Of a stretch of 64,000 bases of DNA, positions 33,381 through 64,000 are shown one piece after another. The position numbers and the translations under genes were made by a program. Position 1 is the stretch's first letter. Every line of letters starts with the position of its first letter. Location: NCBI GenBank assembly GCA_044225365.1, contig JBGAIQ010000014.1, positions 32,001 to 96,000 on the forward strand, written 5' to 3'. The notes below the pieces were generated by a model, which was not told the origin of the DNA, ran no database searches, and saw only the letters and a list, made by a program, of their open reading frames with translations. Source of the stretch: Planctomycetota bacterium. GTDB taxonomy: Bacteria; Planctomycetota; B15-G4; JADJEK01.

Positions 33381-34427
33381 TCAGGGCCCGATTCGTTTCG
33401 TAGCGACGAACCAATCGAAGATGCGCTTCGCCGCGTAAGCGTGGCCCTTGGCATTCGGATGGACGAAGTCGTCGGCGGCTTCGGGTCGCTTCCAGATGCG
33501 GTAGTCGGTGTCCTTCCACTCCGCGAGCAGATCGACGAGCGGGACCTTCAACTCGTTCGTGACCTTGATGAGACCGCGCTCGGTATTCCAGTCGACTTGC
33601 AGGTACTGATCGAAGGGGCCTTGCAGATAGGGAAAGGCACACACGATCAGCGCTAGGTTCTTCTCGGTCGCGAACTGCGACAGCTTGGCGAGCGACGCGA
33701 ACTGCGAATCCGGATCGAACAACAATCCGAATTTCAGGTCCGCATTCGCGCGATACGTGCCGCTCTCCTTCATGTGTGAGATCTCACGCGCCGCGAGGAA
33801 GGTCCGATACAGCGCGGAGTGCTCGATCAGGAACGGGCTGTAGAGCGCACGCCCCGAACCCTGGCGGAAGTAGCGGAGATGGTCGCCCTCGCGGAAGACG
33901 ATCGGCGTCGAGTGCACGTCGTTCGGGCAGTGCGCGACGACGACCGCATCGGGTGCGAGCGGCATGCCGCGATGCACCAACCAATCCCATTCCTGCTCGG
34001 TGTTGTAGCTGATGACACCGGCATTGAGGACCTCGATCGTCCGGTCCGGATAACGCTGCCGCAGCAGCGTCTCGAGCACGGAGGACATCGTCTCCTCGGG
34101 CTTCACGCCGATGCCGTAGGCGATCGAGTCTCCGAGCACGATCACGCGATACGCGCCCGCGGGCTTCTCCACCCGAATCTCGCGCATGCGCATCCCGAGG
34201 GAGTTGATCTCTTCGGTCGCGTGCGGCCGGATCTCGAAGCCTCGGACGGAACCGTCGACGAGCTGATAGAAGTCCGTCCGCATGTTCAACTGATCGTCGA
34301 ACTGCGCCTGCGCGAACTTGCCGAGACGAACTCGACACACCCACTCGGCGAGCAGGAGGACGACGACGAACGATCCCGCGCCGAGCGCGAGTCGCTGGAG
34401 GAGGCTCGATCGTGCCTTGCCCGTCAT
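33381..34427 (-). CDS. SGNH/GDSL hydrolase family protein
   Basis: NSLGMR, LGDSIAYG, NAGVISYN, HCPND and DFVHPN; ATG overlaps the kbl stop. Confidence 0.88.
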   Translation of the reverse strand: MTGKARSSLLQRLALGAGSFVVVLLLAEWVCRVRLGKFAQAQFDDQLNMRTDFYQLVDGSVRGFEIRPHATEEINSLGMRMREIRVEKPAGAYRVIVLGDSIAYGIGVKPEETMSSVLETLLRQRYPDRTIEVLNAGVISYNTEQEWDWLVHRGMPLAPDAVVVAHCPNDVHSTPIVFREGDHLRYFRQGSGRALYSPFLIEHSALYRTFLAAREISHMKESGTYRANADLKFGLLFDPDSQFASLAKLSQFATEKNLALIVCAFPYLQGPFDQYLQVDWNTERGLIKVTNELKVPLVDLLAEWKDTDYRIWKRPEAADDFVHPNAKGHAYAAKRIFDWFVATKRIGP

Positions 34428-35614
34428 CGCACGACGCCGAGCTTCCTTCCCACCTTGGTGAACGCCGCGACGGCCTGCTCGACCATGTCGGGCGTGTGTG
34501 CCGCGGAGAGCTGGACACGAATTCGGTCCTGCTTCTTCGGAACCACGGGATACGTGAATGCGATCACGTAGACACCCTCACCGAGCAGCTCTTCCGCCAT
34601 CTTCTGGGCGACCTTCGGGTCGTAGAGCATCACCGGCACGATCGGATGGAACCCCGGCTTGATGTCGAAGCCCGCGGCCGTCATGCCCTCACGGAATCGT
34701 TTCGCGTTCTTCTCGAGCCGGTCGCGCAGCTCGGTCGACTTCGAGATCAAATCGAGCGCGGCGATCGAACCACCGGCCACGGCCGGCGGCAACGTGTTCG
34801 AGAACAGATACGGTCGCGAACGCTGGCGCAGGAGGTCGATGATCGGCTTCTTCCCCGTCGTGAATCCACCGACCGCGCCGCCGAGCGCCTTGCCGAGCGT
34901 CGACGTGATGACGTCGATCCGCTTCATGACACCGAAGTGCTCCGGCGTACCGCGCCCGGTCTTGCCGATGAAGCCCGTCGCGTGCGATTCGTCGACCATC
35001 ACCATGGCGGAGTGCTTCTCCGCGAGGTCGCAGATCTTGTCGAGCGGCGCGAGATCGCCGTCCATCGAGAACACACCGTCGGTCACGATGATCTTGTCGC
35101 GGAGCGACGCGGCGTCCTTCAGCTTTGCCTCGAGATCGCTCATGTCCGCGTGCTCGTAGATGAAGCGCTGCGCCTTCGCGAGGCGTACGCCATCGATGAT
35201 CGACGCGTGGTTCAGCTTGTCCGCGACGATCGCGTCCTCGGCGCCCAGCACGCATTCGAAGATGCCGCCGTTCGCGTCGAAGCAGCTCGTGTAGACGATC
35301 GTGTCCTCGGTCCCGAAGAACTCGCAGATCTTCTTCTCGAGCGCCTTGTGCACGTCCTGCGTGCCGCAGATGAAGCGCACCGACGACAAGCCGTAGCCAC
35401 GCTCGTCGAGGGTGCGATGCGCGGCGGCGACGAGTTCCGGATGCGAGGAGAGGCCGAGATAGTTGTTCGCGCAGAAGTTCAGGTACTCGCGTCCACCGAC
35501 GCGGATCCGCGCGCCCTGCGGCGACTCGATGATGCGCTCGTTCTTGAAGACGCCGTCGGCCTTGATCTGCTCGAGGGTGGATTCGATACGAGCGCGGGCT
35601 TGATCGCTGAACAT
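34424..35614 (-). CDS. kbl: Glycine C-acetyltransferase (2-amino-3-ketobutyrate CoA ligase)
   Basis: NFCANNYLGL, SVRFICGTQD.HK, SCFDANGG, LNHASIIDG, TDGVFSMDG, TLGKALGG and RQRSRPYLFSN. Confidence 0.95.
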   Translation of the reverse strand: MFSDQARARIESTLEQIKADGVFKNERIIESPQGARIRVGGREYLNFCANNYLGLSSHPELVAAAHRTLDERGYGLSSVRFICGTQDVHKALEKKICEFFGTEDTIVYTSCFDANGGIFECVLGAEDAIVADKLNHASIIDGVRLAKAQRFIYEHADMSDLEAKLKDAASLRDKIIVTDGVFSMDGDLAPLDKICDLAEKHSAMVMVDESHATGFIGKTGRGTPEHFGVMKRIDVITSTLGKALGGAVGGFTTGKKPIIDLLRQRSRPYLFSNTLPPAVAGGSIAALDLISKSTELRDRLEKNAKRFREGMTAAGFDIKPGFHPIVPVMLYDPKVAQKMAEELLGEGVYVIAFTYPVVPKKQDRIRVQLSAAHTPDMVEQAVAAFTKVGRKLGVVR

Positions 35615-56770: not shown

Positions 56771-57038
56771 GCTGACCTCACTTTCAAGGAAACAAGCTCG
56801 ACGAACGTGGTCTCTCCCGCCGACGGTTTCGTCCGCCGTTGAATCGTTCCCACTCGTCTCGCCATCGCACCCGAAACCCACGACGCCCGCCCGAGTCACG
56901 GCGCGTCGTTCAACGAACTCCTCCGGAATCGCCGAAGGAGGTCCCCTCCGTCGTGCATTCGCGATGCTCGAAAGAGCGATCGTCCGGCACGACGGGATCC
57001 GCTCCTCACGAAACGACCCACGCGGTGTCGCCGACTAC

Positions 57039-57054
57039 AGCAGTTCCCATGCCG
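57039..57054 (-). promoter_or_regulatory. Candidate sigma54 (-24/-12) promoter for the IPT-collagen genes
   Basis: Minus strand CGGCATGGGAACTGCT has GG-N10-GC and resembles TGGCACG-N4-TTGCW. Confidence 0.4.
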
Positions 57055-57153
57055 CGCGGCGCGTTGCCCCTCCACCTGCGCCGATTCACGAATACGATCG
57101 TTCTCCGCCGCTCGAATTCGATTTGAAACGCGACTCGGTCAGCGGACCCATCG

Positions 57154-57180
57154 TTGGAAAATCACTTTCCACTTTGGAAA
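57154..57180. promoter_or_regulatory. Inverted/direct repeat cluster, candidate transcription factor binding site
   Basis: TGGAAA-ATCAC-TTTCCA (57155-57171) plus a second TTGGAAA 20 bp after the first; AT-rich in a GC-rich context. Confidence 0.45.
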
Positions 57181-57211
57181 GGAACTGAACAACGCGTGTC
57201 CCCAACGCCGT

Positions 57212-57601
57212 TCAACCGCGCTCGATTCGATCTTCTTCACGCGGACCGGACTTCCAGGTCGTTCTTCGCTCGAGATGATGGCGCACGATCTTCTCGCGCA
57301 GTGTCGGACGACTGATACCGAGCAAGGCGGCCGATCGCGCCAGGTGCCCACCGGTCTTCGTCAGAGCTTCGACGATCAACGCGACGTCGAGTTGTTCGAT
57401 GATCCAACGATGCGCATGCATCGGCGCCGAGTCGAGGCTCGTCCTCGCGAGCGCCCGCAGCGTCTGTCGTATGTCGAGATCCTCGGTCCGCGGGGCGCCA
57501 GCTTCCGATTGGAATGAAACGGAGTGCCCGAGCGCGGACATCATTCTCTCGAGTTCCAAGGTCGTTTCTTCGTCGCCGTCGACGATGACGATTCGAGCCA
57601 A
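57212..57601 (-). CDS. Fis-type HTH protein with a truncated receiver-like N-terminus
   Basis: AAGGAGG SD then TTG; RIVIVDGDE receiver start; EALTKTGG....AALLGISRPTLREKI HTH_8. Confidence 0.75.
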   Translation of the reverse strand: MARIVIVDGDEETTLELERMMSALGHSVSFQSEAGAPRTEDLDIRQTLRALARTSLDSAPMHAHRWIIEQLDVALIVEALTKTGGHLARSAALLGISRPTLREKIVRHHLERRTTWKSGPREEDRIERG

Positions 57602-57721
57602 TCTCCCTCCTTGAAGTGCGTGGGGCGCGGCGGGTGTAGCGCGGCTACATGTACCGACGCGCGCGACCGACGAATGAAGAGCAATCGTCGGGCCACGACC
57701 ACTCTTCGTGGCGACGAGCGC

Positions 57722-59578
57722 TCAGGCCGGAGCGGTCGGAGTGATCGAATCGAGAACCGCCCGCACTTTCGAAGTCATTCCGCGCGGCGTGACCGGCTTT
57801 TGTAAGAAGAACTCGCTGGAATGCAGGATGCCGTGACGAAGGATGGCGTCGTCGGTATAGCCCGACATGAAGAGTACTTTGGCGTGGGGCTGAGCGTCAC
57901 GCACCCTTGCGGCGAGCTCTCGACCGTTCATCTTCGGCATCACGACATCGGTGAGCAGGAGATCGATCGGGATCGACGAGTCGGAGCAGAGTCGAAGCGC
58001 CTCCGTCGGATCCCGCGCTTCGATGACTCGATACCCCGCGCGGCTCAAGATCGATTTCGATACTCCTCGCAAGCTCTCGTCGTCGTCCACCAATAGAATC
58101 GTCTCGCTCCCGGATGCCAGGCTGGGCGCCCCGACGGGAGCGGGCTCCGCGGTGCGGCCTTCACCGCGCGGCAGGTAGATCTTGAAGGTGGTGCCAACTC
58201 CCACTTCGCTATAGAGCCAGATCGCTCCCCCGCTTTGAGCGACGATGCCGAAGACCGTCGACAGGCCGAGTCCTGTGCCCTTTCCCTTGTCCTTCGTCGT
58301 GAAGAACGGCTCGTAGATCCGCGCCTGCGTGGCTTTGTCCATGCCACCGCCCGTATCGCTCACGACCAACACGGAATAGTCGCCGGGGACCATTTTCACG
58401 TGATCGATCGTGTACTCCTCGTCGAGGTGCGCCGTCGAAGTCGAAATCGTGAGCGTGCCACCGTTCGGCATCGCATCGCGCGCATTCACCACGAGGTTCA
58501 AGATCACTTGCTCGACCTGACTCCGATCGACCAGCACGCGCCACGATGTCGGATCGAGACGGAAATTCAATTCGACGTCTTCGCCGACGATCCGCTCGAG
58601 GATCTTCCGCAAGTTGGTGATGACGTCGTTGAGATCGAGGACGCTCGGTGCGAGCACTTGCTGGCGACTGAAAGCGAGGAGTTGGCGCGTGAGGTCTGCG
58701 GCACGGGTTGCGGCCTTCAACACCTCTTCGAGGGCGCCCCGATGACGATCGGCTGCGGGCAGGTCGTCGAGCACCAGATCGGCGTAGCTCATGATGACGG
58801 AGAGGATGTTGTTGAAGTCGTGAGCGATTCCTCCCGCGAGGCGCCCGATCGACTCCATCTTCTGCGCCTGACGGAATTGCTGCTCGGTTCGCTCGAGTTT
58901 CTCGACGGTCCGTTGACGGGCCTGGATCTCGCTCTCGAGTTGCTTCCTAGCGACGTCCGCGGCCTCGGAACGTTCCTGCAGCTTCGACTCGAGCTCGGTC
59001 TTCAGCTCCTGCAGTTCTCGATTCGCGTCCTGGACCTCCCTGGCTCGTTGCAACACGTCGACCGCCATGTGTCGGGTCGCCGCCGACTGGCCCTCGTCCG
59101 ATGCGCCGCGTTCGAGGAGGCGAATGTACTCCGTGACGTCTTCGACTCGGTGGATGATGAAATCAACCGCGCCCCTCTCGTCGAGCATGGGGCAATTGAT
59201 CGGGCTCCAGTATCGCTCCTCGAAACCTCCGCCCTCTGTTTCCGCCCGCTCGATGTCGTACTTCTGAACCGCCATCGTGTCCGGGCGACCCGTCGCGAGA
59301 ACCCGCTCGAGAGAAGCACGAAGCGTGGCGACGCCCGTCGCGTGAGCGTCTTCGGGATTGTCGGGAAACGCGTCGAAGATCTCGCGGCCCAGGAGATCGG
59401 CGCGGGTCCGCATCGTCGCGTCGAGGTAGGCATCCGTCACCGCCACGATCTCGAATCGTCGATTCAAGACCAGGAAGCAACCCGGCGCCGACTCGAAGAG
59501 TCGCCGATAATCCACGCCAGGGCTCTGCGGATCGGAAAGCAAATCGGAACCTACTTCTCTCGCCGGACTCGGACGCAA
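57722..59578 (-). CDS. Hybrid sensor histidine kinase (PAS-HisKA-HATPase-REC)
   Basis: PAS (YRRLFESAP, IFDAFPDNP); QKMESIGRLAGGIAHDFNN; NARDAM, EPFFTTK and GTGLGL; REC LLLTDVVMP. Start uncertain. Confidence 0.92.
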   Translation of the reverse strand: MRPSPAREVGSDLLSDPQSPGVDYRRLFESAPGCFLVLNRRFEIVAVTDAYLDATMRTRADLLGREIFDAFPDNPEDAHATGVATLRASLERVLATGRPDTMAVQKYDIERAETEGGGFEERYWSPINCPMLDERGAVDFIIHRVEDVTEYIRLLERGASDEGQSAATRHMAVDVLQRAREVQDANRELQELKTELESKLQERSEAADVARKQLESEIQARQRTVEKLERTEQQFRQAQKMESIGRLAGGIAHDFNNILSVIMSYADLVLDDLPAADRHRGALEEVLKAATRAADLTRQLLAFSRQQVLAPSVLDLNDVITNLRKILERIVGEDVELNFRLDPTSWRVLVDRSQVEQVILNLVVNARDAMPNGGTLTISTSTAHLDEEYTIDHVKMVPGDYSVLVVSDTGGGMDKATQARIYEPFFTTKDKGKGTGLGLSTVFGIVAQSGGAIWLYSEVGVGTTFKIYLPRGEGRTAEPAPVGAPSLASGSETILLVDDDESLRGVSKSILSRAGYRVIEARDPTEALRLCSDSSIPIDLLLTDVVMPKMNGRELAARVRDAQPHAKVLFMSGYTDDAILRHGILHSSEFFLQKPVTPRGMTSKVRAVLDSITPTAPA

Positions 59579-59675
59579 CCGAAACCGTGCGTCGCAGGGA
59601 TCTCTCCGCCGCGCCGCACGGTCATTATGGGATTCGATCCCTGCCGTTTCGAGAGTCGTCCGAACTTTCGAGCGA

Positions 59676-60776
59676 TTAACGTCGATCCGTCGGGTAGAGC
59701 ACGACCTTCATCGTCTCGTTCCTGCGGAAGCGGGCCATCGCGTCGGGGAATTCATCGAGGCTCGCCTCGTGCGTTACGAGGTGCGAGACGTCCAGGCCGG
59801 CGCGGAGCAGCCCGAGCATCTGGAACCACGTGTCGTACATCCGGCGCCCGATGATGCCCTTGATGTTCTTGCCTTTGAAAACGACCTCGCCGTTCCAATC
59901 GTGGAGCGTGAGCGCCTTCTCCTTGCCGATACCGAGTTCGACGAGATCGCCGCCCCAGCGCGTCATCTCGAGCGCGTCGTTGATCGCGTCGGGATGACCC
60001 GAGATCTCGAGTGCCGCGTCGACGCCCTTCCCATCCGTCCTCCGCTTGATCTCCGTCATCGCGAGCTTGCGCTTCTCGAGGCTTCCGGTATCGAGCACCA
60101 CGACGCGCTCGAGTCCCCGCGGGTGCTTGGCATTGATCCCTGCGGCCCACTTCTTGGCGTGCGCAACGTTGAAGGGATGCACCTCGGTCACGAAGACCTG
60201 TGCAGCGCCCATGAACTCGACGACGGCCGCGGCCATCGCACCGATCGGGCCGTACCCGATCACCGCGATGTCACGGCCCGAGACGCTCGTCGCCTGCGCG
60301 CAGTGCATCGCGTTGCCGAGCGCATCGAGGAATGCACCGACCTTGAGCGGCACCGCCGCGCGATCGAGCTTGATGACGTTCGTCGCCGGAACGACGACGT
60401 AATCCGCAAAGCTGCCGTCCTGATGCAGGCCGCAGATGACGGTACGCTCGCAGGCGTGACCATTGCCGGTCTGGCAAGGGACACAACGCCCGCAGACGAC
60501 GTGCATCTCGGCCGTGACGTAGTCGTCGATCGCAAAGCCGAACCCCTCGGCACCCGGGCCGAAAGCGTCGATCTCGCCGCAGAACTCGTGGCCGAGCGTG
60601 CGCGGCGGTTTCGCCTTCTCGATCACCGTCGCATCGCCGGCGCAGAGATGTTTGTCGGTGCCGCAGATGCCGGCCGCGAGGACCTTGATCCGGACCTGGC
60701 CGGGCCCCGGCTCCGGAATCGGCACGTCGCGCAGGAGCTTCGCCTCACCGACGCCCATGAGCCGAACGGCACGCAT
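59676..60776 (-). other. tdh: L-threonine 3-dehydrogenase domain of the fusion
   Basis: ICGTD.H, GHEFCG, AEMHVVCGRCVPC..G..HAC, DALGNAMH, GYGPIG, LEISG, KGIIGRRMYDTW and KVVL. Confidence 0.88.
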
Positions 60777-62819
60777 CACGCCGCCCGAGACACTCGGTCG
60801 CGGTGCCGCGGGAGTCGCGGCGCCGTCGGCCGAGGGCTGAGTGATCGGCTCGAGGACACTCGTGAGCGAACGGCTCGCGACTTCGCGCTTCAACGCGTTG
60901 ATCACGCTGTCGACGCCCATCGTGCCGATGTTGACGCCGTCGCGTCGGCGAACGTTGACCTGCCCGTTCTCGGCTTCCTTGTCGCCGACGACGAGCACGT
61001 AGTTGACCTTCTTCATCGAGGCATCGCGCACCTTGGAGCCGAGCTTGCCGCCGCCCATGTCGACGCTCGCGCGGATGCCCGCCGCCTTCAGTTTGGAGAG
61101 CGCGATCTGACAGGCAGCCTCGTGACGATCGGTCGCAACGGGGACGATGCGCACCTGTTCGGGCGCGAGCCAGAGCGGGAACGCGCCGCCGAAGTGCTCG
61201 ATGAGGATCGCGAACATGCGCTCCATCGAACCCAGGATCGCGCGATGCACCACCACCGGACGAGTCCGGCCGCCTTGCGCGTCGGCGAAGTAGAGATCGA
61301 ATTTCTCGGGGAGGGAGAAGTCGACCTGGATCGTCGCGAGCTGCCATTCGCGCTTCAGCGAATCGAGGACCTTGAAGTCGATCTTCGGGCCGTAGAACGC
61401 GCCATCACCGGGGGCGACCTCGTAGGCCGCGCCGAGTCGTTTCAACGACGTTGCGATCGCGGCTTCGGCGTTGTCCCACATCGCTTCGCTGCCGGTTCGC
61501 GATTCCGGACGCGTCGCGAAGAACAGCTTCACGTCCTCGAATCCGAAGACTCCATATACCTCGCGCACGAATGCCACGAGCGCTTCGATCTCGTCCTGGA
61601 GTTGTTCCGGGGCGCAGTAGATGTGCGCGTCGTCCTGCGTGAACGATCGCACGCGCGTGAGGCCACTCATCACGCCGGCCTTCTCGAAGCGATGGCAGAG
61701 CCCAAACTCCGCGAGACGCAGCGGTAGATCGCGATACGAGCGGATGTCCTGCTTGAACACGAAGGCCGAGCCGGGGCAATTCATCGGCTTCATGCCGATC
61801 CGTGGCTCGTCGAGCACTTCCTTCGGGTCGCCGTCATGGTGCACGAAGAACATGTTCTCGCGGTAATGCGTCATGTGGCCCGTCGTGCGCCAGACGCTCG
61901 TGTCGAGGACGACCGGGGTCTTCACCTCGACGTAGCCCTTCGCCTTCAGCTTCTCGCGCATCATCTCTTCGATGGCGTTGCGGCACACCATGCCGTTCGG
62001 CAGCCAGATCGGATGCCCGGGGGCTTCGGGGATGATGTGGAACAGAGCGAGGTCCTTGCCGAGCAGGCGATGATCGCGCTTCTTCGCTTCTTCGCGATTC
62101 TTCAGAAACTCATCGAGTTCCTCCTTCTTGAAGAACGCGGTCGCGTAGATGCGCTGCAACGACTCGCGCTTCTCGTTTCCCCGCCAGTACGCGGCGGCGA
62201 CCGAGAGCACCTTGAACGCCTTGCCGACCTTGCCAGTCGAGGGAAGGTGCGGACCGCGACAGAGGTCGGTGAATTCGCCCTGCGAGTAGAAGGAAATCGG
62301 TGCGTCGTCGGGCAATTCGTTGACGAGTTCCTTCTTCAGCTTCGCTCGACCCGCGCCATCGAGTCGCGCGCAGGCGTCGGCCTTGCTGTCGGCGATGAAG
62401 CGCGAGAGTTGCAGGTCCTCGTCGACGATCTTCTTCATCTCCGCTTCGACTTCATCGAGGAACTCGGGAGTGAAGGCTTTGTCGACCTCGAAGTCGTAGT
62501 AGAAGCCGTCGTCGATCACGGGGCCGATCGCGAACTCCACCTTGTCGCGGCCGAGCTTGCGCGCAACTGCCTGAGCGAGGACGTGCGCCGCGGTGTGGCG
62601 GAGGACCTCTAGGCCTTCCTTGGTGCCCGGATTCACGATCGCGAGCGCGCCGCCGGAATAGAGCGGAGTGTGAAGGTCGAAGATGCGGCCATCGACCGTG
62701 ACCGCGAGCGTCTTCTTCGCGTCGGGGATCTTGGACAACAGCTCTTTGATCGTTCGGCCCGCCGCCAGGGTGAGCTTCGATCCGTCGGCCAGGGTGAAGG
62801 TCAGCTCGCTTCCGCTCAT
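59676..62819 (-). CDS. thrS: Threonine--tRNA ligase fused C-terminally to L-threonine 3-dehydrogenase
   Basis: TGS domain; editing domain RHTAAH and DLCRGPH; RDHR.LG, KPMNCP, RVRSFTQDDAH, AFYGPKID and VHRAILGS.ER; anticodon domain VVGDKE; then a Tdh domain. GGAGA SD before ATG 62819. Confidence 0.95.
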   Translation of the reverse strand: MSGSELTFTLADGSKLTLAAGRTIKELLSKIPDAKKTLAVTVDGRIFDLHTPLYSGGALAIVNPGTKEGLEVLRHTAAHVLAQAVARKLGRDKVEFAIGPVIDDGFYYDFEVDKAFTPEFLDEVEAEMKKIVDEDLQLSRFIADSKADACARLDGAGRAKLKKELVNELPDDAPISFYSQGEFTDLCRGPHLPSTGKVGKAFKVLSVAAAYWRGNEKRESLQRIYATAFFKKEELDEFLKNREEAKKRDHRLLGKDLALFHIIPEAPGHPIWLPNGMVCRNAIEEMMREKLKAKGYVEVKTPVVLDTSVWRTTGHMTHYRENMFFVHHDGDPKEVLDEPRIGMKPMNCPGSAFVFKQDIRSYRDLPLRLAEFGLCHRFEKAGVMSGLTRVRSFTQDDAHIYCAPEQLQDEIEALVAFVREVYGVFGFEDVKLFFATRPESRTGSEAMWDNAEAAIATSLKRLGAAYEVAPGDGAFYGPKIDFKVLDSLKREWQLATIQVDFSLPEKFDLYFADAQGGRTRPVVVHRAILGSMERMFAILIEHFGGAFPLWLAPEQVRIVPVATDRHEAACQIALSKLKAAGIRASVDMGGGKLGSKVRDASMKKVNYVLVVGDKEAENGQVNVRRRDGVNIGTMGVDSVINALKREVASRSLTSVLEPITQPSADGAATPAAPRPSVSGGVMRAVRLMGVGEAKLLRDVPIPEPGPGQVRIKVLAAGICGTDKHLCAGDATVIEKAKPPRTLGHEFCGEIDAFGPGAEGFGFAIDDYVTAEMHVVCGRCVPCQTGNGHACERTVICGLHQDGSFADYVVVPATNVIKLDRAAVPLKVGAFLDALGNAMHCAQATSVSGRDIAVIGYGPIGAMAAAVVEFMGAAQVFVTEVHPFNVAHAKKWAAGINAKHPRGLERVVVLDTGSLEKRKLAMTEIKRRTDGKGVDAALEISGHPDAINDALEMTRWGGDLVELGIGKEKALTLHDWNGEVVFKGKNIKGIIGRRMYDTWFQMLGLLRAGLDVSHLVTHEASLDEFPDAMARFRRNETMKVVLYPTDRR

Positions 62820-63029
62820 CGATCAGGTCTCCGGTGTCTCGCGCCCGCCCGAACTCTCGGGCCTGGCCGAATCGGAACAGGATATCGGGTCGCTGCCGCA
62901 GGACATAGGGCATGGGTGCCCGTCGCTCCGACATCGTGAATTGCGGGCGATTCCGAGGATTCCGCGGGACACCCGGGATGACACCTGGATCTGTACTGCG
63001 CACCTCGTTCCTCGAACCGGATCCTCGTC

Positions 63030-64000
63030 ATGCGCCCTTCGATCCTCACCGCCCTGTTCTCTGCGTTCTTCCTCACCACGAATGGGTTTGCGACCATCGA
63101 AGCGATCGATGTGAAGCCCGGGAAGCCGTTCGTCGACCCGCCCGGGAAGCCGCAGCCGAACGCCGGCTGCGGCAGCATCTCGGCATCCAAGAATGGTCGC
63201 TACGTCGCGTTCTTGTCGGGTGCGACGAACCTCGTGAAGGGACTGCATCCGAACAAGACGCAGGCCTACCGCACCGATCGAGTGACGAACACGACGATCT
63301 GCATCTCGCTCGCGAAGAACCACGCACCGGCGAATGACGACGTGCTCGATGTCTCTCTCTCGGGCAACGGGCGCTACGCTGTGATCGTGACGCGTGCGTC
63401 GAACCTCGGGACGCCGTTCAACGGATTCGTCCAGGCGATCTTCGAGGACCTGAAGACCGGAAAGCGCCTCACCGCATCGCTCGCGGCATTCCAGCCGTAT
63501 TTGAATCTCGACTGTGATCGGGCGTTCATCAGCGGCGATGGCTCGACGGTGGTCTTCGAGACGGCGGCCTCGAACGTCCTTGCGGTCGGCAACAACGGGA
63601 AGAAACAACTCTACGCCTGGGATCGCTTCTCGAACGATGTCGATGCGTTGTCCTTCAGCCCCCAGGGTCAACCCGGCAACGCGGACACCCATGGATCGAG
63701 CGGTGTCGGAATCTCGAAGGACGGCAAGTTCGTGACCTTTGCCTCCGACGCGACGAACCTAGTGTCCGCGAACCCCGGCAACCCGTCGTACCTCGACGTC
63801 TTCGTGCGCGACCGCGCGGTCGGAACGACGGAGCTCATTTCGAGGAACTTCTCCGGAGGCGCCGCCAACAAGGCGAGCACCCATCCGTCGATCTCCGAAG
63901 ACGGTCGGTACGTCGGCTACGTCTCGACGGCGAGCAACATCACCACGGACGACAACGATGGCAATGACTACGACTGCTTCTTCTACGATCGCCAGTTGAA
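63030..64000 (+). CDS. Secreted TolB-like (PD40) beta-propeller repeat protein, 3'-truncated by window edge; absent from the ORF track
   Basis: ATG 63030, signal-like MRPSILTALFSAFFL; repeats S.NGRYVAF.S.ATNLV, ISKDGKFVTFASDATNLV, DVFVRDR and ISEDGRYV; frame open to the end. Confidence 0.85.
   Translation, partial: MRPSILTALFSAFFLTTNGFATIEAIDVKPGKPFVDPPGKPQPNAGCGSISASKNGRYVAFLSGATNLVKGLHPNKTQAYRTDRVTNTTICISLAKNHAPANDDVLDVSLSGNGRYAVIVTRASNLGTPFNGFVQAIFEDLKTGKRLTASLAAFQPYLNLDCDRAFISGDGSTVVFETAASNVLAVGNNGKKQLYAWDRFSNDVDALSFSPQGQPGNADTHGSSGVGISKDGKFVTFASDATNLVSANPGNPSYLDVFVRDRAVGTTELISRNFSGGAANKASTHPSISEDGRYVGYVSTASNITTDDNDGNDYDCFFYDRQL

Follow-up and report, generated by a model that had tools for sequence, protein, structure and literature searches.

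In the 64,000-nucleotide stretch of a Planctomycetota bacterium genome analysed here (contig JBGAIQ010000014.1 of assembly GCA_044225365.1, positions 32,001 to 96,000 of the forward strand; hereafter the window), a single uninterrupted reading frame encodes a complete threonyl-tRNA synthetase (ThrRS), a short linker and a zinc dehydrogenase of the medium-chain dehydrogenase/reductase (MDR) type that resembles L-threonine 3-dehydrogenase (Tdh). Mapping this architecture across related genomes and metagenomes, we found that the fusion is real and conserved throughout three genera, and the gene order and phylogeny of its relatives suggest that it is the end state of a thrS-tdh-kbl module conserved in some Planctomycetota. 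The genome that holds it is 6.53 Mb in size, lies in 103 contigs and is 94% complete. The features of the locus, by window position, are the following.

59676..62819, minus strand: whole fused frame, 1047 codons plus stop with an ATG start, in the order ThrRS, linker, Tdh-like dehydrogenase
60846..62819, minus strand: ThrRS part, residues 1-658 (Pfam and NCBIfam domains, invariant residues)
62145-62297, minus strand: editing domain (tRNA_SAD, PF07973), residues 175-225, Pfam match over cutoff
61191-61802, minus strand: class II catalytic core (tRNA-synt_2b, PF00587), residues 340-543, Pfam match over cutoff
60885-61157, minus strand: anticodon-binding domain (HGTP_anticodon, PF03129), residues 555-645, Pfam match over cutoff
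60777..60845, minus strand: linker rich in Pro, Ala, Ser and Gly, residues 659-681 (23 residues; sequence and fused-family alignment)
59679..60776, minus strand: zinc MDR dehydrogenase part, residues 682-1047 (366 residues; Pfam, NCBIfam and PDB matches, kbl synteny)
60363-60707, minus strand: ADH_N, residues 705-819 (Pfam)
59805-60248, minus strand: ADH_zinc_N, residues 858-1005 (Pfam)
34424..35614, minus strand: kbl, for glycine C-acetyltransferase (2-amino-3-ketobutyrate CoA ligase), TIGR01822 at 644 bits against a cutoff of 493

An earlier note on this DNA, made from the sequence alone, had described one frame with a full ThrRS, and the family models agree: within the 1047-residue frame, residues 74-646 align with model positions 1-564 of the NCBIfam thrS model TIGR00418 at 641.6 bits, against a cutoff of 383.65, and the three Pfam ThrRS domains all exceed their cutoffs. 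The N-terminus is a beta-rich region without a Pfam TGS match at E<0.01. With E values of 1e-192 and 1e-88 for the two halves, the match of both to their families is far beyond chance. The zinc and editing residues that the note had named are present, C348, H399, H525, H79 and C187 being invariant in all nine sequences of the fused-family alignment and H75 and H191 being kept in eight of them; we take their roles, as active-site zinc ligands (Cys, His, His) and editing-site His and Cys residues, to be those of their counterparts in E. coli ThrRS. A check for further thrS genes, which the note had also proposed, shows that the fused gene is the only one over the cutoff in this genome, and as the only ThrRS it would have to charge tRNA-Thr.

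Spread of the fusion

The fusion is uninterrupted in 6/6 species genomes of genera g1, g4 and g6, that is, in this genome and 5 of its 40 relatives. Full-length matches with 72-73% identity occur in three genomes of genus g6 (G005, G010 and G011). In genus g4, G008 has a continuous frame of 1072 residues with 67% identity, and the contig of G003 ends inside the dehydrogenase, not in the linker, with an 806-codon frame that spans the junction. The four remaining genera of the family (6 genomes) and the remaining families of the order (29 genomes) have no case of the fusion.

Metagenomes extend this pattern. When residues 620-1047 were searched against 5.8 billion proteins, considering long proteins only and scoring the best 8000 candidates, at least 10 proteins with 69-93% identity were found to bear both ThrRS and ADH Pfam domains (10 of the 11 matches listed). 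Among 1.84 billion cluster representatives, 3 of the best 150 matches span both halves, all of them at least 70% identical, and the next match after these is a plain ThrRS at 621 bits; no independent ThrRS-Tdh fusion from elsewhere was seen among those best 150 matches. In source databases the fused proteins go by the plain name "threonyl-tRNA synthetase" (jgi entries), and unannotated entries with the fused architecture surely exist.

The earlier note had pointed to the linker as the place where the fusion needed support from other data and from relatives, and both are now at hand. Contigs from two other studies cross the linker with 0 gaps (X5 record 16 over 59600-60944 and X7 record 25 over 60639-61019), a contig piece from X1, which may be the source sample, has zero differences, and no insertions or deletions are listed over the compared region, 59600-62900, in the contigs of four runs; the relatives with the fusion are the five genomes of genera g4 and g6. 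Although a single small change would fuse the genes of the closest unfused relatives and the assembly lies in 103 contigs, the idea that an assembly or sequencing error erased a stop codon or shifted the frame between two separate genes has practically no chance of being right and is effectively refuted by in-frame linkers of differing length in 6 species genomes, 10 metagenome proteins and the contigs of independent runs. The fusion is not an artefact of assembly.

Unfused modules in relatives and a dedicated ThrRS lineage

Of 401 sampled Planctomycetota genomes, 180 contain a Tdh-like match, but matches that begin at the first query residue and cross the junction are confined to the fused clade. 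We examined the loci of the 25 genomes with a Tdh of at least 44% identity, together with four more distant ones. Five of the 25 genomes, each from a different family, have thrS immediately upstream of tdh, on the same strand and in another frame, with the junctions listed here.

G042: ThrRS with the usual C-terminus, and a gap of about 190 nt before tdh-kbl
G079: overlapping thrS stop and tdh start
G065: 8 nt from thrS stop to tdh start
G063: 1 nt from thrS stop to tdh start
G168: 78 nt with a GC hairpin and a strong Shine-Dalgarno (SD) sequence (AAGGAGG) ahead of tdh, which kbl follows

The four distant loci all lack thrS near tdh, and 2 of the 25 loci have less than 600 nt of upstream sequence, which leaves little room to see a linked thrS there. 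In G168, G063 and G065 the ThrRS already carries a tail of 12-23 residues, rich in Gly, Pro and Ala, that resembles the fused linker. These unfused modules share the ThrRS lineage, the Tdh subfamily, the gene order and the strand of the fusion, and differ from it in having a thrS stop and a tdh start of their own. The series of junctions suggests that co-translation of both proteins was already selected before the fusion. The linked thrS is the sole thrS in 4/5 of these genomes, and G079 has a second copy.

In G168 (locus L094, G168:C37) the spacer that separates the thrS stop from the SD of tdh holds a GC-rich hairpin, perfect over 10 bp, which is absent from the fused genes and could be an attenuator or an RNA-stability element. 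Rfam gives no match in window positions 57000-64000 at E up to 1 and none that reaches the gathering score across 59 kb from eight fused or linked loci. The regions upstream of thrS have nothing obviously in common by eye, and no leader or riboswitch was identified in them.

The Tdh tree was built by quick search from 67 rows, using high-scoring segment pairs (HSPs) of at least 320 residues with E up to 1e-30; this drops L018, L062, L063, L064, L065 and L103, and L027-L029 were left out as duplicates of L014-L016. ThrRS trees, also by quick search, have 38 rows, or 41 rows when ThrRS from genomes with tdh unlinked or absent are added; HSPs under 540 residues were dropped (L071, L077, L088, L092 and L128), and 11 outgroups of Bacillota type were left out (L070, L072, L074, L076, L079, L081, L082, L085, L086, L089 and L093). 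In the Tdh tree the five fused sequences form one group (Shimodaira-Hasegawa-like approximate likelihood ratio test, 94) with G168 as its sister (99). In the ThrRS trees the six fused sequences form one group (98), which G168 joins first (100) and G063 next (98). All 6 fused and 5 linked ThrRS fall in one clade (99), whose only other member, G129b, lies on a contig that stops 187 nt past thrS, too early to show whether tdh follows.

Outside this clade are the ThrRS of the non-fused members of the same family (G001, G002, G004 and G007) and those of families f3, f4, f5, f62 and f86. Forcing a single clade on all ThrRS of the family costs 234 log-likelihood units and is rejected by the approximately unbiased (AU) test (p-AU 8.5e-5). 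The trees thus suggest that the module carries its own ThrRS lineage, which would have replaced the family's usual ThrRS type in the fused clade, and that the fusion arose once, within this lineage. The trees are unrooted, and G168 may represent either the state before fusion or a later split. The earlier note had held that two unrelated genes sharing a substrate are unlikely to fuse by chance, and the association of thrS with tdh is indeed not a chance one, given the adjacency in five further families and the separate clade of the associated ThrRS.

Three genomes have two thrS over the cutoff: G079 (C70 and C60), G129 (C233 and C333; 8% contamination) and G298 (C112 and C96). In G079 one thrS is of the module type and stands beside tdh-kbl and the other is of a different lineage, a pair that could mark a halfway stage in replacing the native thrS. 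In G008 a 209-codon open frame at a contig end (C483, 4-489) matches the ThrRS editing region of the fusion (residues 70-236) at 41% identity and may be a free-standing editing-domain protein or a piece of a second thrS. Two other long proteins join ThrRS to different partners: P0118 (1158 residues) has an Aa_trans amino-acid transporter domain (750-1145) behind a complete ThrRS, possibly as a gene-model artefact, and P0133 (1062 residues) is a ThrRS followed by a tRNA_bind domain.

The dehydrogenase half and its partnership with kbl

For residues 683-1042 the best NCBIfam family is L-threonine 3-dehydrogenase, the next family reaching 151.7 bits, and the five best PDB matches are all Tdh (2dq4, 2dfv, 2d8a, 5kia and 3gfb; 212-229 bits), followed by another enzyme at 132. 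The half was aligned to 2dq4 and 2dfv by sequence. Cys719, His744 and Glu745 of the catalytic zinc site, the structural Cys776, Cys779, Cys782 and Cys790, and the GxGxxG motif (G855, G857 and G860) with an acidic residue that favours NAD are kept in 67/67 homologues, the window's protein included; the motifs which the earlier note had called intact are intact in all of them. In this genome the fused gene is the best Tdh candidate (299 bits), and the note's question about other tdh genes is answered by the absence of any further candidate above 133 bits, SDR-type (short-chain dehydrogenase/reductase) Tdh not having been searched for.

Homologues of this dehydrogenase appear to be tied to kbl. 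Outside Planctomycetota, kbl stands directly downstream of tdh on the same strand in 33/37 loci, and two of the four loci without it stop at a contig edge. In Planctomycetota, kbl lies at most 450 nt downstream in 24/29 unfused loci; among fused genes, it follows after 33-67 nt in 3/3 genomes of g6 and about 1 kb downstream in G003. On a contig of a Gemmatimonadetes metagenome-assembled genome (L031, 3813-4889), the 704-residue protein P0011 joins a thioredoxin-reductase-like flavoprotein (Pyr_redox_2, 11-299) to a Tdh-like domain 49% identical to that of the window, with kbl immediately after it. P0011 is a second, independent fusion of this dehydrogenase subfamily.

How the fused protein would work

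We consider it likely that the fused gene encodes a genuine bifunctional protein whose halves are independent and made 1:1, as the end state of the module. The N-terminal 658 residues would be the sole housekeeping ThrRS and charge tRNA-Thr; we expect this half to be functional because no other thrS exceeds the cutoff in the 94%-complete genome. The C-terminal 366 residues would act as an NAD-dependent zinc dehydrogenase that converts free L-threonine to 2-amino-3-ketobutyrate, which Kbl would split into glycine and acetyl-CoA. The two halves, which most likely act independently, would be joined by 19-34 residues of linker that are poorly conserved and probably flexible. The thrS stop would have been lost once, in the ancestor of the three genera, which would have made the coupling covalent, at 1:1. 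Charging capacity for tRNA-Thr would then scale with the capacity to degrade threonine, catabolism could not outrun translation, and the benefit would be that translation is protected while threonine is burned. Among the roles that the earlier note had proposed, that the fusion "fixes their stoichiometry" is the one that the evidence fits best, and passive co-production is the simplest reading.

The junction itself is as the earlier note had described it. The linker is exactly residues 659-681, the internal Met codon lies at 60776-60774, and no clear SD precedes this ATG, the weak GG-rich stretches there being the linker's Gly codons; sites resembling promoters or terminators were not found in the linker. 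Across the nine aligned sequences the linker varies from 19 to 34 residues and is 12-78% identical to that of the window, and identity to the window's protein is 59-89% in the ThrRS half and 73-95% in the Tdh half, the latter being the better-conserved half in 8/8 comparisons. This pattern is what two constrained enzymes on a free tether would be expected to leave. A full-length AlphaFold2 model from the 9-row alignment has a mean predicted local distance difference test (pLDDT) score of 49.5 and a predicted template modelling (pTM) score of 0.29, too poor for domain packing, and in this low-confidence model residues 650-680 are without secondary structure. A complex prediction of ThrRS 60-658 against Tdh 682-1047 gave a score of 0.00, run without controls, which speaks neither for nor against contact.

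Several points weigh against independent halves with both activities. The independence is an assumption, the benefit of a 1:1 ratio is a rationalisation, and the fusion could be neutral. A separate Tdh could be made from an internal start at Met682, a retained start codon that is invariant in 9/9 fused proteins. In this genome kbl and the fusion share a strand but are 24 kb apart, with kbl set among unrelated genes, and kbl was not found in G008 (88% complete). The group rejected in the AU test was defined by taxonomy and tested after the tree had been seen, on trees made by quick search. Moreover, the dehydrogenase half scores below both curated Tdh cutoffs (NF003808, 297.3 bits against 380; TIGR00692, 278.7 against 458.35), has Asp832-Ala833 where solved Tdh enzymes have the Glu of an EP motif, which we take to be the fourth zinc-site residue, and carries an insert of 15-20 residues in the nucleotide-binding (Rossmann) domain. 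The scores fall below the thresholds because of Asp832 and this insert, and with all three features the substrate is assigned from the best matches and synteny.

Asp stands at the 832 position in all 5 fused, 5 linked and 20 unlinked Planctomycetota sequences and in 20 Gemmatimonadota sequences, and Glu in 9/10 Eisenbacteria-like sequences. Since Asp832 and the insert are common to fused, linked and unlinked Planctomycetota and to Gemmatimonadota, they mark a subfamily and not the fusion. Compared with the zinc MDR Tdh enzymes that work with Kbl (2dq4, 2dfv/2d8a, 5kia and 3gfb), the window's half is alike in the catalytic Cys, His and Glu, the structural Cys, the NAD motif and the tdh-kbl pair, and differs in its scores below the NCBIfam cutoffs, Asp832 for Glu, the insert and the fusion to ThrRS. 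The "full Tdh" of the earlier note holds in so far as Tdh families and structures are the best matches, and has to be narrowed to an Asp-variant subfamily below both curated cutoffs. Judging from these comparisons, the half belongs to a Tdh-like sister subfamily outside the curated equivalogs that most likely works as Tdh.

The bifunctional reading leaves the halves without communication. That they do communicate, with the tRNA-Thr, ATP or Thr-AMP state of ThrRS gating Tdh, for example, or with threonine partitioned at one site, we hold to be unlikely; the fusion and the dedicated ThrRS lineage would then owe their existence to a functional complex that serves as a metabolic switch. ThrRS is a dimer and MDR Tdh usually a tetramer, and the higher-order assemblies that the earlier note had proposed may form, as one further kind of coupling. 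The association is old and specific, the module having its own ThrRS clade, the linker-like C-terminal tail is already present on the unfused ThrRS of G168, G063 and G065, and the Tdh half is the more conserved in all eight comparisons, all of which would suit such coupling. However, the linker varies in both length and sequence, as expected of a passive tether, and therefore argues for one, and the catalytic positions checked in both halves match those of standalone relatives.

Still less probable is the biosynthetic direction, in which Kbl and the Tdh half would run in reverse (glycine, acetyl-CoA and NADH to threonine) and hand the threonine to ThrRS. The Kbl/Tdh pair can form threonine in vitro, according to PMC3439479, which cites Marcus and Dekker 1993, and threonine synthase was not found in 3/3 genomes of g6, where kbl follows thrS-tdh, or in the sister G168 (84-94% complete). 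Against this, threonine synthase is clearly present in this genome (NF006050, 561 bits against 303), in G008 (451 bits) and in 3/5 linked genomes, and g3 and several f3 genomes, which belong to lineages without tdh-kbl, lack thrC as well, so that the absence of thrC does not track the module; PMC3439479 also describes the intermediate as unstable. Should the module nevertheless be a unit in g6 and G168 that makes and charges threonine, or a complex with charging-gated threonine oxidation, two options that together have a slim chance, it would provide the first case of a housekeeping synthetase with a physical link to the metabolism of the free amino acid that it uses.

We regard it as very improbable that the substrate of the dehydrogenase half, as an MDR enzyme, is a different hydroxy compound or tRNA-bound threonine, the latter a speculative option of the earlier note. 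The scores below both curated cutoffs, the Asp in place of the Glu ligand and the Rossmann-domain insert would be in keeping with another substrate. However, Tdh families and structures win by an about twofold score margin, the Asp variant and the insert are subfamily-wide in a subfamily that is almost always followed by kbl, and the only known supply of substrate for Kbl is Tdh (textbook knowledge); nothing suggests tRNA binding by the dehydrogenase half.

Against this background, the bifunctional ThrRS-Tdh protein can be compared with known systems. It is like bacterial ThrS (TIGR00418, E. coli type with editing) in its full-length match, domains, zinc and editing residues and sole copy, and unlike it in a 389-residue C-terminal extension (linker plus dehydrogenase) and in coming from a lineage found only beside tdh, apart from G129b, whose contig stops short. 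Synthetases are rarely fused to metabolic enzymes, and the known bacterial and fungal partners use charged tRNA. The fused synthetase of LysX is an extra copy; that of the ThrRS fusion, unlike those of LysX and ErdS, is the only copy. In LysX (LysRS-MprF, mycobacteria) and ErdS (AspRS-transferase, fungi) the synthetase is fused to an enzyme from the metabolism of the same amino acid (PMC2713425 and PMC13219428). This enzyme consumes the aminoacyl-tRNA made by the synthetase half, whereas the partner in the ThrRS fusion would compete for the free amino acid. The fusion does not belong to the LysX/ErdS type, its partner being an MDR dehydrogenase without a transferase domain.

The earlier note knew of no described ThrRS-Tdh fusion, and neither such a fusion nor a thrS-tdh-kbl cluster was found in the literature searched, supplements lying outside its scope. 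Both enzymes are individually well known; new are the domain architecture, a gene module that is conserved and has a ThrRS lineage to itself, and a subfamily of Tdh, linked to kbl and marked by the Asp variant, which is defined here and missed by current curated models. The synthetase, essential and in single copy, shares a polypeptide with an enzyme that would destroy its amino-acid substrate, and a dedicated ThrRS lineage appears to accompany tdh-kbl through at least 6 Planctomycetota families. The intermediates, from spaced genes through overlapping stop and start to fusion, offer a natural series for translational coupling becoming gene fusion, and a concrete system for the balance of amino-acid catabolism against tRNA charging.

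No threonine synthase match above about 100 bits was seen in G002 and G007 (g3), G005, G010 and G011 (g6), G014, G017, G020, G029 and G031 (g10), G016, G019 and G022 (f3), or G168; in genomes of the order this gap occurs with or without tdh-kbl, and the lineages concerned may be threonine auxotrophs or users of an unrecognised route. In bacteria, infC-rpmI-rplT often trail thrS. These genes are not downstream of the fused gene in the window, and a hybrid PAS/histidine-kinase/receiver protein lies directly downstream there instead (57722-59578, minus strand), CckA-like at 417 bits, far below the cutoff.

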